43,025 bases of DNA from Promethearchaeota archaeon (GCA_019894975.1 JAGXNO010000034.1:1-43025); one strand, 5' to 3'; positions 6,636-13,507 are shown, numbered from the stretch's first letter. Numbers and translations are program-made. The notes: generated by a model from the letters alone, not told the origin.

Positions 6636-8552
6636 CTGATAAATGAAGAATATTTTGGTCCTGCTATCATTGATATCGATGAATGGAGAGATAAACCAGT
6701 CAAACATCGATTTGTGCATGGATCTTTTGAAAATACGCACACTCGTTTCATTCTTTGCTTTCCTCATGCTAAAAACTATGGTGGACGTTTCATCCAACAT
6801 TTAGAAGGAGGATTAGGAGGAAATGAATACACAGGTTATGTTGCGGGAGGACTCTATCTTGCACGTCGTAATAATGCTTATTATGTAGAATCAAATCAAG
6901 GTCATTCTGGTGATCTAAGGGTGTTACGTGATCATGCCTCGGTATTCGATTGGGAAGCAAGTGCTAAAACAGCTCAATATGGTCGTGAGTTTGCAAAGAA
7001 AATATATGGAGAGGAGCCTCATCATGGATACTTGTATGGAGGTAGTGGGGGGGGATATCGATGTGTTAAATGTGCAGAAGCCCCGATTAAAGTGTGGGAT
7101 GCATTTATGCCTATGATCATGTCTTATCCAAGTTTTTTTACTTTTTACGATTCAATAATGGCATTAACTGTTCAAATCTTAGGAGATAAAATTAAAGACG
7201 TTGTGGATGCTACAGATCCTGGTGGGAATGGAAATCCATTTGCGATATTGGAAAATAATTTACAGAAAGAAGCTCTAGCGAGCCTCTATCAATCAGGCTT
7301 TCCTCGTGGAGCAGAAGCACAGCTAAGACCAAATCCTTTCTGGCCGTATGCTATGCAAATCTTACCTGATCCGAAGCATTATGAAACGTTCTGGGAAGAA
7401 CCTGGATTCGAAGGAAAAGATGACGATCATGTGGTAAGATCTTTACTAATAGAAGAAGACGTAGAAGTAGAAGAGTTATTGAAGGTAAATCAAATTCGAT
7501 CTTTAATTGTAGTAAATGATCTGGATGATGGTATGTTAAGGGACCTTATATTCCCAAAAGAAGCTAATATTGGTATGAAGGTAAAATGCATAAATCCGGG
7601 AAAATACGTTGGTTGTACAATACAATTACCTAATGGTCGTAAAATGTATTGTACCCACAACGCAGATGATGTATTAGTTGCCTTATTTTCGCGTCATAGC
7701 TTAGATGATGTAGAAAAGGGTGATATAGTTCATCTTGATAACCGTCGACTTGTAGCGTTTAGCTTTCACCATCGCCATTTTGTAAGTAATCGATATCCAG
7801 AAATGAAGCAGTTCTTTATTGATGGAATTCCCATTTATAAACCATCTTCACGCTCACTAGATCACATTCCAATACCTTCTGGAAAATTTCATGGAAAAAT
7901 GATCATTGTACAAAATGCCCAAGATTGTGATGCATGTCCTAGTAATGCTCGGGCATATATCGAATCTGTAAAAAATCATTTAGGGAATTCTCTAGATAAT
8001 TATTTTCGTATATACTGGACTGAAAATGCATGTCATCTTCAACCACTAACATCAGTTGAATCAACCAGATATATCCCATGGGGGTCTATCGTCTCTCAAG
8101 CGATGAATGATCTCATAAAATGGATAGAAGAAGGTACTTCACCACCCACCAGCACTAACTACAATTTCAATATTCATTCAGCACTTCAATTGCCTGGGAA
8201 TGCTTCTGAAAGGAAGGGTATTCAACCAACTGTTAAATTAAGTATTAATGGTAAAAAAAATGCTCATATCAATGTAGATCACACAATTTTATTAGATGGT
8301 GAAGCGGAAGCACCACCAAATACAGGTTACTTTATAAAATTGGATTGGGATTTTGATGGCTCAGGTAAGTTTTCACATCAAGAAGAATTAGGTGGAAATG
8401 AAAGTAAAATAAAAACAACAGCTTCACATCAGTATAGTAAACCTGGCACTTATTTTGTGACCTTTCGAGTTTTTATGGAACGTAATGGAGAAAAACGAGA
8501 TGTAATACACCATATTATAAATCAATCTCGAGTTCGTGTTATAGTTTCTTAA
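6636..8552 (+). CDS. Alpha/beta-hydrolase-like (tannase/feruloyl-esterase-like) protein with C-terminal PKD domain; start uncertain (CTG 6636 or GTG 6714)
   Basis: YLYGGSGGG nucleophile elbow; PKD signature WDFDGSG...HQYSKPGTYFVTFRV. Frame is open from 6618. Confidence 0.65.
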   Translation: MINEEYFGPAIIDIDEWRDKPVKHRFVHGSFENTHTRFILCFPHAKNYGGRFIQHLEGGLGGNEYTGYVAGGLYLARRNNAYYVESNQGHSGDLRVLRDHASVFDWEASAKTAQYGREFAKKIYGEEPHHGYLYGGSGGGYRCVKCAEAPIKVWDAFMPMIMSYPSFFTFYDSIMALTVQILGDKIKDVVDATDPGGNGNPFAILENNLQKEALASLYQSGFPRGAEAQLRPNPFWPYAMQILPDPKHYETFWEEPGFEGKDDDHVVRSLLIEEDVEVEELLKVNQIRSLIVVNDLDDGMLRDLIFPKEANIGMKVKCINPGKYVGCTIQLPNGRKMYCTHNADDVLVALFSRHSLDDVEKGDIVHLDNRRLVAFSFHHRHFVSNRYPEMKQFFIDGIPIYKPSSRSLDHIPIPSGKFHGKMIIVQNAQDCDACPSNARAYIESVKNHLGNSLDNYFRIYWTENACHLQPLTSVESTRYIPWGSIVSQAMNDLIKWIEEGTSPPTSTNYNFNIHSALQLPGNASERKGIQPTVKLSINGKKNAHINVDHTILLDGEAEAPPNTGYFIKLDWDFDGSGKFSHQEELGGNESKIKTTASHQYSKPGTYFVTFRVFMERNGEKRDVIHHIINQSRVRVIVS

Positions 8553-8887
8553 TTGATGAATCGAAAAACTGATGGTTTAATCATTTAACAAATTTAGGGC
8601 AGAACTAATTATCGTTACCGATAAAAAAGCTGAGAAAAGTTTAGAAAATTAATAATTAGATGAAAATAATAGAATGAAATCAATCAAAATATACCATTTC
8701 ATTAAATTAAAAAAACTAGTAATCCGCTAAATTATCAGAATTTAGTCGGATTGAATTATGTTTTCATAATAATTTAATTTTAATAATATAGACTATTTTC
8801 AATATCATAATTCATTTCATAGAATTACTAAAGAACTAAATGAGTGAATATCGTTAATCTTTAAAACATAGGAGGTAAGGATTAACA

Positions 8888-8894
8888 AAGGTGA
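8888..8894 (+). promoter_or_regulatory. Shine-Dalgarno-like AAGGTGA before the TTG start of hdrA
   Basis: GGTGA at 8890-8894, 6 nt before TTG 8901; the same motif precedes the ADH gene. Confidence 0.7.
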
Positions 8895-8900
8895 ATAAAA

Positions 8901-10880
8901 TTGTCTGAAAAACAGACCAATGAAAATGTAAACGAAGAAAGTCAAACTAGAATAGGTGTGTTCGTATGTCACTGAGGTATCAATATAGCAGGAATCTTAG
9001 ATATCCCAAAAATCGTTGAAGAAATAGATAAAATAGAGAATGTTTGGGCTTATCCATATCTTTCTCTTTGAACTGAAGGCGGTTCTGCTGAAATTAAAGA
9101 AAAACATGCAGATCGAAAGTTTGATAGAGTTTTGGTAGCAGCTTGCACTCCAAAAACGCATCAACCAGTATTTCACGCGATATTAACAGAAATGGGATTA
9201 CCCCCAAGATACTTAGAATTCGTTAATATAAGAGAACATTGTTCTTTTGTACATCAAGCTCCAGAGGTACGTGAAAAAGCAACTCTTAAAGCGATAGAGT
9301 TAATTAAGGCAGGTATAGCTCGTTCAAAGTTATTAGAAGATGTTCCCACTAAAACAGTTCCAGTAGAACCTTCCGCTCTCGTAGTGGGAGGAGGAATTGC
9401 GGGATTATCTGCAGCTATTGATTTAGGAGATGCAGGATACAAGGTATATTTAGTTGAGAAGAACACGACAATTGGCGGTCGCATGTCCCAGCTTGATAGA
9501 ACTTTTCCTACTGATGATTGTTCGATATGAATATTGGGACCAAAGATGCTTGAAGCTAATCGACATCCAAATATTGAGATTCTTTCCTACAGTGAAGTTG
9601 CTGAAATCGATGGCTACATTGGTAACTTTGAAGTGAAAGTAAGGAGAATGGCTCGATTTGTTGATGAGGATAAATGCACGGGTTGCGGCACTTGTACAGA
9701 TGTATGTCCTGTCTATATAAGTAATTACTTTGATGAGAACTTATCCGCAAGAAAAGTTATTGACGTAGCTTTTGCGCAAGCAGTACCAGCAGTATCACAA
9801 CTTGATAGAAAAACGTGTATTGAATGTTTTGCTTGTGTAGATGCATGCGACCAAGATGCCATAGATTTCAGTCAACAGGATAAAATCGTGGAACTTAAGG
9901 TTGGAACTATAATAGTTGCTACTGGTTGGGACCTCTATAAAGGCGATGATTATGGATATGGCAAATTTGATAACGTAATTAATCAAATAGAACTTGAAAG
10001 GATACTTGCACCAAATGGTCCTACATATGGTCATTTAAAACGTCCTTCCGATGGTAAGCGTCCTTCGAAAGTATTATTTATTAATTGTGTAGGTTCAAGA
10101 GATGTGAATAAAAATGCTCACTGTAGCGTAATCTGTTGTAACCTTTCACTGAAAAACTCTAAGCTAATTAAATCCGAATATCCTGATTCACAAATCGTCG
10201 TTAGCTATATAGATATGCGCTGTGCTGGAAAAGATTATGAAGAATACTATAGAAGATCTCGAGACGCTGGAGTTATTTTTGTTAAAGGATTAATTGGGAA
10301 AATTGAAGAAGATCCTCTTACAAAGAACCTTATAGTACAATTTGAGCCTGTTGGTACCGATTCCGTAGTAACCATGGAAGCCCATATGGTTGTATTATCA
10401 TCTGCTTCACTTCCATCTCAAGGTACATTGCAAATTGCTAAGGTATTAAAAATGGAAAGAAGCCCCGATGGCTTTCTAAAAGAATATCATGCAAGACTTG
10501 ACCCAATCAGCACTAAAGTACCAGGTATATACATCTGTGGTTCTGCTCAAGGGCAGAAAGAGATTGATAAAGCAGTAAGTCAAGCTAGAGGTGCAGCATC
10601 AGTAGCAGGTATTCCAATGGGAAGAGGAGAATATACTATGGAGTTAATACGTGCTATTCCTTCAGATGAACGTTGCGCAAAATGTTATATGTGTATAGAG
10701 GCTTGTCCATATAGAGCTATTTCGGTAAATGAAACAGGAAATATTGTTGTTGACTTAATTAATTGTCGAGGATGCGGAACTTGCGCAGGCATATGTCCTT
10801 CTAAAGCGATTGAATTAACTTACTATAGAGACGACCAATATATGGCTCTAATCGATCAACTTTTACCAATTGAAGAGTAG
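8901..10880 (+). CDS. hdrA: Heterodisulfide reductase subunit A, selenoprotein (659 aa; Sec at codons 25, 57 and 210)
   Basis: One frame from TTG 8901 to TAG 10880, interrupted only by TGA at 8973 (RIGVFVCH-U-GINIAG), 9069 (YLSL-U-TEGG) and 9528 (DRTFPTDDCSI-U-ILGPKM). Each is at a conserved HdrA Cys. GGGIAG FAD motif, CVGSR, HCSVICC and four ferredoxin motifs. The ORF track splits it into 9132..9530 and 9534..10880. Confidence 0.95.
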
Positions 10881-10894
10881 AGAGGTAATAAAAA

Positions 10895-11353
10895 ATGGCA
10901 GAAGAAAAAGATATAAAAATTATTGTATATGCTTGCTGGAAATGAGGATATGGTTCAGCTGATATGGCAGGTACAATTCGCGCGCAATATCCAGACTCAA
11001 TCCGAAATGTCTTAGTACCTTGTACGGGGCGTGTAGGATCTGACTTAATAATGCGTGCTTTTGGTAGAGGTGCTGATGGTGTTGTAATAAATGCTTGATA
11101 TCCTGGTGAATGTGATTATGAGACAGGGAATTATTTTGCGTACCGACAAGTAGAATATGTCAAAGAAATACTTAAAACAGTAGGAGCAAGTCCAGAGAGG
11201 ATAAAAATCATATATTGTACCGCAGCAGAAGGCCAGAAATTCCAAAATGAAGCTATTGAATTCGATAAAACTATACGCAAATTAGGACCAAGTCCTCTAC
11301 GTACAAAAGGCACACCTAAGAAAGGAAAGGCCAAAGCGAAAGCTAAGGCTTAA
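10895..11353 (+). CDS. mvhD: MvhD/VhuD [2Fe-2S] hydrogenase delta subunit, selenoprotein (152 aa; Sec at codons 17 and 68)
   Basis: Hand translation MAEEKDIKIIVYACWK-U-GYGSADMAG...VPCTGRV...GADGVVINA-U-YPGECDYETGN...LGPSPL. TGA at 10943 and 11096; GAGGT RBS. Not in the ORF track. Confidence 0.95.
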
Positions 11354-11360
11354 ATAATAA

Positions 11361-11434
11361 ATGTGTTTACTAATGAAGCTGAGTTAAAAAAACGAGAACT
11401 CATGCTGAAGAAATGGGTGCACCATAAGACACAT
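11361..11434 (+). promoter_or_regulatory. Candidate eukaryote-like SECIS element 3' of hdrA-mvhD
   Basis: ATGAA 11373-11377; stem GCTGAGTT (11378-11385) pairs with AACTCA-t-GC (11397-11405); loop AAAAAAACGAG; TGAA 11406-11409 completes the tandem G.A/A.G core; outer helix ATGTGTTT (11361-11368) pairs with AGACACAT (11427-11434). Confidence 0.85.
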
Positions 11435-11549
11435 AAAATAGTTTTTAAAATATAAGCAATAAGAGTAAAAATTTAGTTATCATATTAGTAATATAAGAAA
11501 AAAAAAGGAAATTGTAAGTACTAATTTAAAATTTCAGAGTTGGAAATAC

Positions 11550-12689
11550 ATGGATGCAATGGCAGAATACCTAATTAAGAGTGAAGATTTTTCTAAAATT
11601 TTAGCAACGTTACTAAAGGAAAAAGTTGTAGACAAAATCATAGGTGCAGAATTAAGAGTTGATAAGAAGTCAGGTAATATTGACAGATTTACAGTTCAAC
11701 CAAAATTAGTGGAAAAAGAAGAAGATCTTTCAGATTTTCCATTATCTCCATTAATCGCTTTTGGATATGCGAGAACAGATTCTGCATCAAAATTCCTTCA
11801 TAAATCTGTAGCAGGTGCTATGAATGAGAAAGTAGGACTTATAGCTCGCCCTTGCGATACACGTGCTTTAATTGAGCTTGCTAAAATTAAACAAGTTAAT
11901 CTAGATAATCTCTTTATAATTGGTATAGAGGATCGAGGAATGCTTCCGAAAGCAGGAAGAGAAATGAGAGCAATTAAAGATGTTGATCCTACTAAAATCG
12001 TGAAAGAGAAAGTTGGAGACAACGGTTTAATTGTCAAATTAGATGATGGGAGTACAAAAGAACTTAAATTTACTGTCTCAGAAAATTGTCTAAGATGTTT
12101 TCGCAAAATTCCTGTTGTTGCTGATTTAACTGTAAGTGATCTTGGTATACCGATCGATTCAGAAGAAATCATTCTTAAAGTGTACTCTGATAATGGAAAT
12201 GATATTTTAGAAAAATCAAGGATAAATAAGAAAGACCTTCCTGATAATGTGAAGAAAGAACATACCGAAAAATTTACCGAAATTATTGAAAAAGCTAAGG
12301 AGAAAAGAGCAAAGGATTTAGAAGAATGGGATAAACTCTCACAAGATGAAAAGATAGCAGAACTGCTTAAATGCACGATGTGTAACACGTGTATTCGAGG
12401 ATGTCCTGTTTGTTACTGTGTAGATTGTATACTCCAAAAGAAGAGAAAGGATAAAACAATAGATAAAGTTACGTATCAATTAACACGAATTGCTCATGAT
12501 GCAGATAGATGTGTTGAGTGTGGGAACTGTGATAACAATTGTCCTCAGAATTTACCCCTCTCACTTTATTTCCAATCTCTCAATGATGCTTTCAAAGAAA
12601 AATTCGGATATGAAGCAGGTATGTCTCTTGATGATATTCCATTCCGTAGTGCAAAAGCAATTGCGGAGATGGAATTAGAAAAGACTTAG
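11550..12689 (+). CDS. FdhB/FrhB-family (F420-interacting) subunit with C-terminal 2x[4Fe-4S] domain
   Basis: ARPCDTRALIELAK..QVNLDNLFIIG, NCLRC, ADLTV, CTMCNTCIRGCPVCYCVDC and CVECGNCDNNCP match the formate dehydrogenase beta subunit layout. Confidence 0.85.
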   Translation: MDAMAEYLIKSEDFSKILATLLKEKVVDKIIGAELRVDKKSGNIDRFTVQPKLVEKEEDLSDFPLSPLIAFGYARTDSASKFLHKSVAGAMNEKVGLIARPCDTRALIELAKIKQVNLDNLFIIGIEDRGMLPKAGREMRAIKDVDPTKIVKEKVGDNGLIVKLDDGSTKELKFTVSENCLRCFRKIPVVADLTVSDLGIPIDSEEIILKVYSDNGNDILEKSRINKKDLPDNVKKEHTEKFTEIIEKAKEKRAKDLEEWDKLSQDEKIAELLKCTMCNTCIRGCPVCYCVDCILQKKRKDKTIDKVTYQLTRIAHDADRCVECGNCDNNCPQNLPLSLYFQSLNDAFKEKFGYEAGMSLDDIPFRSAKAIAEMELEKT

Positions 12690-12700
12690 GTTATTTAGGA

Positions 12701-12730
12701 TTTTTTTTATTTATTTTTATTATTTTTTCT
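12701..12730 (+). terminator. Oligo-T terminator-like tract closing hdrA-mvhD-fdhB-like unit
   Basis: TTTTTTTTATTTATTTTTATTATTTTTT 12 nt after the stop. Confidence 0.6.
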
Positions 12731-12844
12731 ATTTAATGAACATAATCTAGATCTGTTTGTACAATGCATCAATATTAGGTCAAATTTATCACCATTTTTC
12801 TTATACAATAGAAGGTTTTTATTTCTTCAATCATTTCTTCAACC

Positions 12845-13507
12845 ATGTTATCAAATTTAACAAAGAATCTAGTTGAACTTGAACGTGATCAAGTATTATC
12901 TGAAATAAAAGAACGCATTGGTCAAGGTGAAGATCCATTGAAGATCTTCGAGGAATGTAAGAAAGCCATGGATTTGGTCGGTGAGAAATACAAAAATAAA
13001 GAGTATTTTCTTGCGGAGTTAATGCTCTCAGGTGATCTTTTTAGAGAGGCAACGGAGCTAATCGAACCATATTTACGAGGAAAAGTAACAGAAGGAGATA
13101 TTAAAGGTAAAATAATACTTGCTACAATTCAGGGAGATATTCATGATTTAGGCAAAGATATTTTTGGTATGCTTCTAAAATTAGAAGGTTTTGAGGTTTA
13201 TGACTTAGGTGTAGATGTCAATCCAGATGTTGTGATTGAGAAAGTAAAAGAAATTCAACCCGATTTTCTTGGGTTTTCAGCTCTTCTTACTATAACTTTT
13301 GATCCTATGAAAGAAGTGATTGAGAAATTGGAAAAAGCGGGACTTCGGGATAGATTGAAGATATTGGTTGGTGGAGGAATCACAACCCCACTGGTGAAAG
13401 ATTACACTGGAGCAGACTTTCAAACAGTCGATGCCATGGAGGGTGTTCAATTTTGTTTGGAAACAATTAAAGCAAGAGTTGTAATTAGAGCACGGGGGGG
13501 AATATAA
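12845..13507 (+). CDS. Cobalamin-binding corrinoid protein (MtaC/MtbC-like)
   Basis: N-terminal B12 cap, GDIHDLGK (DxHxxG), GFSALLT and VGGG. Confidence 0.93.
   Translation: MLSNLTKNLVELERDQVLSEIKERIGQGEDPLKIFEECKKAMDLVGEKYKNKEYFLAELMLSGDLFREATELIEPYLRGKVTEGDIKGKIILATIQGDIHDLGKDIFGMLLKLEGFEVYDLGVDVNPDVVIEKVKEIQPDFLGFSALLTITFDPMKEVIEKLEKAGLRDRLKILVGGGITTPLVKDYTGADFQTVDAMEGVQFCLETIKARVVIRARGGI

Follow-up and report, generated by a model that had tools for sequence, protein, structure and literature searches.

The closest described counterpart of the locus analysed here is the Asgard tandem of hdrA, which encodes a homologue of heterodisulfide-reductase subunit A, and vhuD (mvhD, FlpD family). 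For this tandem in Loki genomes, Mariotti et al. 2016 (PMC4989117) inferred one polycistronic mRNA with a single selenocysteine insertion sequence (SECIS), the lokiSECIS, behind the second gene; one such element would serve up to six UGA codons over ~2 kb, and HdrA never ends in UGA. As published (PMC4989117), a lokiSECIS has AUGA and GA, a stem of 9 bp and an A-rich loop of 11 nt. Huang et al. 2024 (PMC11227280) extended the shared-SECIS reading to hundreds of Asgard metagenome-assembled genomes (MAGs), and the two papers reached this conclusion from independent data. Reporter work in Methanococcus (Peiter and Rother, PMC9622424) showed no more than that, inside a single cistron, an archaeal 3' SECIS is free of a strict distance limit. 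Here we analyse an hdrA-mvhD pair in a stretch of 43,025 nt from a Promethearchaeota archaeon (GCA_019894975.1, JAGXNO010000034.1:1-43025; hereafter the window), whose assembly amounts to 3.9 Mb with 31.6% G+C. The pair is very probably a two-gene selenoprotein unit of Lokiarchaeia (Promethearchaeota), in which five UGAs are read as selenocysteine (Sec) via one 3' SECIS behind mvhD. Its parts are:

8901-10880, + strand: hdrA, 659 codons plus a TAG stop (10878-10880); heterodisulfide-reductase subunit A homologue with three predicted Sec codons
8973-8975, + strand: UGA for Sec25 of HdrA, within the Fe-S domain at the N terminus, 2400 nt upstream of the SECIS core
9069-9071, + strand: UGA for Sec57 of HdrA; Sec in some relatives, Cys in others
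9528-9530, + strand: UGA for Sec210 of HdrA; in methanogens this is the canonical Sec position of the protein
10881-10894, + strand: hdrA-mvhD spacer, 14 nt, containing AGAGGU, the Shine-Dalgarno box of mvhD; neither a SECIS nor a promoter would fit
10895-11353, + strand: mvhD/vhuD (FlpD family), 152 codons plus a TAA stop (11351-11353); two predicted Sec codons, 51 codons apart
10943-10945, + strand: UGA for Sec17 of MvhD, 430 nt before the SECIS core
11096-11098, + strand: UGA for Sec68 of MvhD, 277 nt before the SECIS core
11361-11434, + strand: complete lokiSECIS, 74 nt, beginning seven bases past the mvhD stop

Comparison with the Asgard tandem shows that every testable defining feature is found in the window or its genome, Asgard origin and Sec machinery included: hdrA precedes vhuD on the same strand at a very short distance (14 nt here), HdrA has several Sec positions, among them the canonical one near 200, two Sec positions ~50 codons apart are found in VhuD, a single AUGA/9-bp/11-nt-loop/GA element stands behind the second gene only, and the hdrA stop is never UGA. 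The arrangement and its shared-SECIS reading are already known, having been published in 2016 and 2024. The orthologue group of the window shows no substantial difference from the described tandem; in detail it differs in a one-base bulge in the upper helix of the element and in a third HdrA site that is polymorphic for Sec and Cys, and from other lokiSECIS elements in an apical loop that ends in GAG, where UAG is common. The hdrA-vhuD pairs of Methanococcales and Methanopyrus share the orthologous proteins, the gene order, the canonical HdrA Sec, the two VhuD Sec positions and one 3' element (PMC4989117), but their SECIS is of the GAA_A type, of which there is none in the window, and methanogen HdrA has one Sec only.

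With TGA read through, the hdrA frame (8901-10877) contains TGA at codons 25, 57 and 210 (8973, 9069 and 9528) and the mvhD frame (10895-11350) at codons 17 and 68 (10943 and 11096), and both frames are free of TAA, TAG and frameshifts. Read by the standard code, hdrA is reduced to open reading frames (ORFs) of 132 and 448 aa and mvhD to a single ORF of 44 aa; for annotation, both count as intact selenoprotein genes, broken up by standard gene callers. Pfam profiles recover the HdrA architecture (an FAD/NAD-binding domain and several 4Fe-4S domains) in the first protein, which matches solved HdrA chains at E = 5e-204, and FlpD/MvhD in the second (E = 1e-40; solved MvhD chains, E = 6e-34). In alignments with solved chains, the four TGAs other than Sec210 stand opposite Cys.

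To compare the TGA sites among relatives, we used 35 related loci returned from a scan of species-representative genomes, nearly all of which are labelled Promethearchaeota or another Asgard phylum; 27 of the 35 are orthologues with MvhD identity of 85-92%, and the closest loci are from Promethearchaeota and other Asgard MAGs. Counts for hdrA sites and stops rest on 34 related genes and those for mvhD on the 35 loci. Codon 25 of hdrA is TGA in 34/34 genes and is opposite Cys in Cys-type paralogues and in solved HdrA; codon 210 is likewise TGA in 34/34 and is opposite a non-standard residue X after DDCAM in a methanogen HdrA chain (9sfi_A). Both mvhD sites are TGA in 35/35 loci, with Cys at codon 17 in 10 Cys-type paralogues of the same genome and Cys at codon 68 in Cys-type paralogues. 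Site 57 of hdrA is TGA in 9 genes, TGT in 24 and TGC in 1, so that 9 loci have Sec and 25 have Cys among close orthologues of ~90% identity; this is a textbook Sec/Cys pair, in which the two residues were exchanged recently at a presumed Fe-S ligand. The five UGA sites, all of them conserved Cys in Cys-type homologues, comprise presumed Fe-S-cluster ligands and the canonical HdrA site. A preliminary description of this DNA had listed the five in-frame TGAs in otherwise open frames, placed them at family-conserved Cys positions, judged the 14-nt gap too small for a SECIS and predicted that standard gene callers would break hdrA and lose mvhD; coordinates and description were correct, the per-site table puts all five codons opposite Cys or TGA in homologues, and the ORFs and the content of the spacer agree with the remainder.

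The hdrA gene ends in TAA or TAG in all 34 related genes (TAG in the window) and never in TGA, and its start codon varies among orthologues (TTG, GTG, ATG). Protein identity downstream of the TGAs is ~90% among orthologues at a synonymous pairwise diversity of ~0.4, indicating purifying selection over the entire frames, beyond each of the TGAs.

The element behind mvhD folds with a minimum free energy (MFE) of -17.8 kcal/mol (z = -4.0), and none of 200 shuffled sequences folds as well. It consists of a basal helix of 8 bp (11361-11368 with 11427-11434), a core of AUGA (11373-11376) and GA (11407-11408), an upper helix of 9 bp (11377-11385 with 11397-11406, with one bulged U at 11403), an apical loop of 11 nt (11386-11396) of which the first seven are A, and, in the 3' strand of the internal loop, a mini-hairpin of 4 bp (11413-11425). 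The element is kept in all related loci, and a consensus fold was obtained from 28 orthologues. In a set of 29 elements from two subtypes, pairing in the upper helix reaches 95% and all nine pairs covary, with changes on both sides, compared with 32-45% pairing in controls in which the partner strand was slid. The hairpin and the TGA pattern together are far beyond chance.

An initial covariance model (R1), derived from 11 elements that belong to other selenoprotein genes, proved too sequence-specific and missed the SECIS of the window itself, and was replaced by a model (R2) of 29 SECIS elements representing both subtypes, which detects loki-type elements only. Run on the whole 43-kb window with filters off, R2 gave one significant match, at 11368-11419 (60.8 bits, E = 9e-13), and the next-best match was of 15 bits, on the other strand and far from the pair. 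In the 35 related loci (274 kb, 4-8 kb each) R2 gave exactly one significant match per locus, always directly behind mvhD; about half of these matches are absent from the R2 seed alignment. The single hairpin claimed in the preliminary description is thereby borne out by the fold and by R2.

The lokiSECIS has a three-helix shape, with basal helix, upper helix and a mini-hairpin of 3-5 bp. The mini-hairpin is present in the MFE fold of ~8 of the 11 SECIS elements of the genome, with differing sequences, and is invariant in the 28 orthologous elements; neither it nor the basal helix is described in the main text of PMC4989117 or PMC11227280.

Searches for a second SECIS of the Rfam, Methanococcus or loki type, which the preliminary description had named as evidence that would overturn it if found upstream of or inside hdrA, gave none. 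Rfam SECIS_1 and related SECIS models had no match in the window at the gathering threshold, nor at E <= 10 in 8300-12900; all Rfam models together gave no match in the window at gathering thresholds, and only chance miRNA and snoRNA matches at E <= 10 in 8300-12900. A descriptor of the Methanococcus type (a GAA_A bulge flanked by a lower stem and a short upper stem rich in G+C) had no match on either strand of the window. The only + strand match of R2 in the intergenic region ahead of hdrA, at 8551-8575, is not significant (12 bits, E = 1.1) and overlaps the stop of the upstream gene. A loose pattern match inside hdrA, at 9592, with GUGA, a 2-nt bulge in its stem and a loop of 14 nt, was dismissed as chance, since its pairing is not kept and its synonymous sites vary in orthologues. 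Synonymous-site conservation gave no sign of a hidden RNA element inside hdrA or mvhD, a hairpin at the 5' end apart: diversity is flat (0.31-0.50) across both genes except at the gene ends, with one modest dip of 12 codons (0.18) near 9021, where there is no structure.

Three conserved elements lie around the start of hdrA:

8766-8808, + strand: AT-rich conserved block ~100 nt upstream of hdrA; ~43 nt almost invariant in the 27 orthologous loci
8869-8894, + strand: motif in the 5' leader; its two boxes, GGAGGU and GGUGA, resemble Shine-Dalgarno sequences, and GGUGA lies 6 nt ahead of the start codon
8903-8917, + strand: start-codon hairpin GUCUG-N5-CAGAC, 5 bp, taking in the last base of the hdrA start codon; not SECIS-like

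In the AT-rich block, mean column identity over the 27 upstream regions is 0.84-0.96, compared with 0.2-0.6 in neighbouring intergenic DNA. The block is probably the archaeal promoter of the unit (B recognition element and TATA box), which would leave a leader of ~90 nt. The leader motif is nearly invariant in the 27 orthologues. The hairpin has the lowest synonymous diversity in hdrA (0.07 vs. a mean of 0.41), with an invariant stem and a variable loop, and its codons are minority choices (CAG, 21% of Gln; ACC, 13% of Thr; TCT, 28% of Ser). It recurs in two Sec-type hdrA paralogues of the genome (C109:34055 and C110:27098) with ~45% protein identity, and was not found at C109:98649, in Cys-type paralogues or in loci L060-L066.

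Leader motif and hairpin are what an explanation by a separate hdrA signal would build on. In that explanation the 3' SECIS serves mvhD only, and hdrA is recoded through an unrecognised signal of its own, located in the 5' leader, in the start-codon hairpin or elsewhere within the gene. The conservation of leader (8869-8894) and hairpin (8903-8917) indicates constraint at the RNA level, and in Methanocaldococcus one selenoprotein gene carries its SECIS in the 5' untranslated region (UTR). However, promoter-like block, leader and hairpin all lack the SECIS hallmarks (AUGA/GA core, GAA_A bulge), the hairpin is missing from other Sec-type hdrA genes (C109:96709, L060-L066), the paralogue at C109:34055 has the hairpin and yet also a 3' lokiSECIS of its own, and synonymous diversity is flat over the remainder of hdrA and mvhD. 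We consider a separate hdrA signal very unlikely. A different role for the same elements is conceivable, if doubtful: the hairpin and the double Shine-Dalgarno leader may form a second, 5' cis element that throttles hdrA initiation, matching ribosome load to the limited capacity of one distant SECIS that serves three to four UGAs. Hairpin and leader are preserved as nucleotide sequence in three lineages of Sec-hdrA paralogues whose proteins are only ~45% identical; if true, throttling of initiation at hdrA would be a new layer of control in multi-Sec decoding.

Comparison of the hdrA paralogues within the genome bears on the sharing of the 3' element itself. We identified nine full-length hdrA paralogues, of which four contain TGA (at sites 25, 57, 82 and 210, always opposite Cys in the others). 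All four Sec-type genes have a downstream lokiSECIS, three of them behind a Sec-type mvhD and one directly behind hdrA, with no mvhD; the five Cys-type genes have no downstream lokiSECIS, and their mvhD partners, where present, are Cys-type. That hdrA requires a 3' SECIS and, in the tandem, borrows that of mvhD is argued most strongly here by this split between Sec-type and Cys-type genes and by the solitary hdrA, which has a SECIS to itself.

The solitary Sec-hdrA (two UGAs; L025:256-2349, C109:34055-36148) has no mvhD behind it, and its lokiSECIS lies 11 nt past the stop. It is an exception to the published claim that Asgard hdrA and vhuD always adjoin, and a second 3' end like it is found at C74:580-630, on a 1-kb contig.

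The genome was also checked, as the preliminary description had proposed, for Sec machinery, and contains tRNA-Sec (62.6 bits, anticodon TCA), SepSecS, EFSec/SelB, a PSTK-like gene and two SelD genes, each of the latter with one in-frame TGA. Contig C44 carries the genes for tRNA-Sec, SepSecS and EFSec, clustered inside 8 kb, and the SelD/SPS genes are adjacent (L009/L010, C108:10686-12773). TGA terminates 214 of the 1611 long frames (13%) and is therefore a normal stop in this genome. An account of the TGAs as assembly errors, pseudogene lesions or genome-wide reassignment of TGA has in its favour the bare presence of in-frame stops and nothing more, and we regard it as refuted: the same TGAs occur in 34-35 independent assemblies, they fall at Cys positions only, TGA ends 13% of long frames, and the genome has tRNA-Sec together with the remaining Sec machinery. 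Two other studies moreover yielded DNA contigs identical to the window over 8761-9310 and 8769-9134, which cover the first two TGAs; the preliminary description had named TGT or TGC in reads at these sites as an observation that would refute its reading.

The reading as one unit also presupposes that hdrA and mvhD share a transcript, for which two metatranscriptome runs provide short contigs only, mostly 85-95% alike, whose uncovered stretches are uninformative; near-identical ones lie over parts of both genes. One RNA-library contig, over 11295-11433 with 2 mismatches, joins the 3' end of mvhD to the SECIS. Directly past the SECIS lies one further feature:

11442-11446, + strand: T5 tract, possible archaeal terminator (weak inference)

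This tract is one of two runs of T5 or longer in 8553-11550 and is poorly conserved among orthologues. Were hdrA and mvhD instead on separate transcripts, the SECIS would act in trans or hdrA would be translated to its first UGA only. In keeping with this, the junction is bridged by none of the transcript contigs listed, and there is a T5 run inside hdrA, at 10276-10280. Against it, hdrA and mvhD are separated by 12-17 nt in the 27 orthologues and by at most 35 nt in more distant loci, and in the spacer only a Shine-Dalgarno box is seen, with no conserved promoter-like block of the kind upstream of hdrA. Full-length HdrA is under purifying selection in the 27 orthologues, which excludes a routine stop at codon 25, and the hdrA stop avoids TGA in 34/34 genes, as expected within reach of a SECIS. 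Separate transcripts are, taken together, highly improbable.

Under the shared-SECIS reading, transcription of the unit would be driven by the promoter-like block near 8780 and would yield one mRNA ending past the SECIS. The kink-turn core (AUGA/GA) would recruit the Sec-specific elongation factor with Sec-tRNA(Sec), directly or via a putative adaptor, and Sec-tRNA(Sec) would be delivered in cis to any UGA-paused ribosome on the mRNA, whether in hdrA (1.8-2.4 kb away) or in mvhD (0.28-0.43 kb), with mvhD translated from its own Shine-Dalgarno box beside the hdrA stop. The preliminary description had proposed that one element recodes five UGAs in two cistrons, and all computational checks favour this part; it had further proposed processive Sec insertion across a true stop and re-initiation, which over-reads the arrangement and is not needed, because a 3' SECIS need only act in cis on any UGA-paused ribosome of its mRNA, whichever cistron that ribosome began with, and mvhD has its own ribosome-binding site.

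Several points weigh against the shared-SECIS reading. A conserved start-codon hairpin and a conserved leader motif do exist at the 5' end of hdrA, and, as R2 is restricted to the loki type, hdrA may formally have a recoding signal of an unrecognised kind. The PSTK-like gene scores under the curated cut-off (125 vs. 290 bits), with the full profile covered. The hdrA-mvhD junction is bridged by none of the RNA-library contigs listed, which are short and may include DNA carry-over. What the analysis shows is the two genes, the conserved TGAs, the fold of the SECIS and its uniqueness, and the Sec machinery; the single transcript, Sec insertion and the route of delivery are inferred. A SECIS-binding protein is not known in the Asgard lineage (PMC4989117).

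Compared to the SECIS elements of eukaryotic 3' UTRs (e.g., that of selenoprotein P), the lokiSECIS shares the kink-turn AUGA/GA, unpaired A's in the apical loop and the position in the 3' UTR, as well as the predicted action on several UGAs hundreds to thousands of nt upstream. It differs in a shorter upper helix, in its presumably polycistronic mRNA and in the lack of any Rfam model match at E <= 10, and no SBP2 is known in the Asgard lineage (PMC4989117). The element of the window appears to be like a eukaryotic SECIS in its working, yet is not a member by the curated covariance model. The shared Asgard SECIS is central to the idea that eukaryotic SECIS elements descend from the Asgard VhuD SECIS, and one 3' element that recodes as many as six UGAs across two cistrons and more than 2 kb would be the most extreme long-range Sec decoding known. 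This significance belongs to the 2016 and 2024 papers (PMC4989117, PMC11227280), and the window is one more clean instance, to which our analysis adds the single SECIS in each of 35 loci, the split of four Sec-type vs. five Cys-type hdrA genes, and the solitary Sec-hdrA with its own SECIS.

Downstream of the pair, on the same strand, the window encodes an FrhB/FdhB-C-terminal and 4Fe-4S protein (11550-12689) and a protein with a B12-binding domain (12845-13507); neither hdrB nor hdrC adjoins the pair. Elsewhere in the genome, a lokiSECIS of 49-61 bits lies at L027:2426-2476 (C98:164925-164975); the gene that it serves was not identified from three-frame translations, one frame of which contains a small membrane-like ORF ending in ...CDIF-TGA ~110 nt upstream. 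A further lokiSECIS lies 7 nt past the TAA of a gene on the minus strand (L026:263-763, C87:80162-80662) for a 167-aa protein of no Pfam family with adjacent in-frame TGAs (HAD-U-U-ADI). Homologues of this protein were found in 33 of 41 genomes (this genome and 40 relatives from four families), each with exactly two TGAs.

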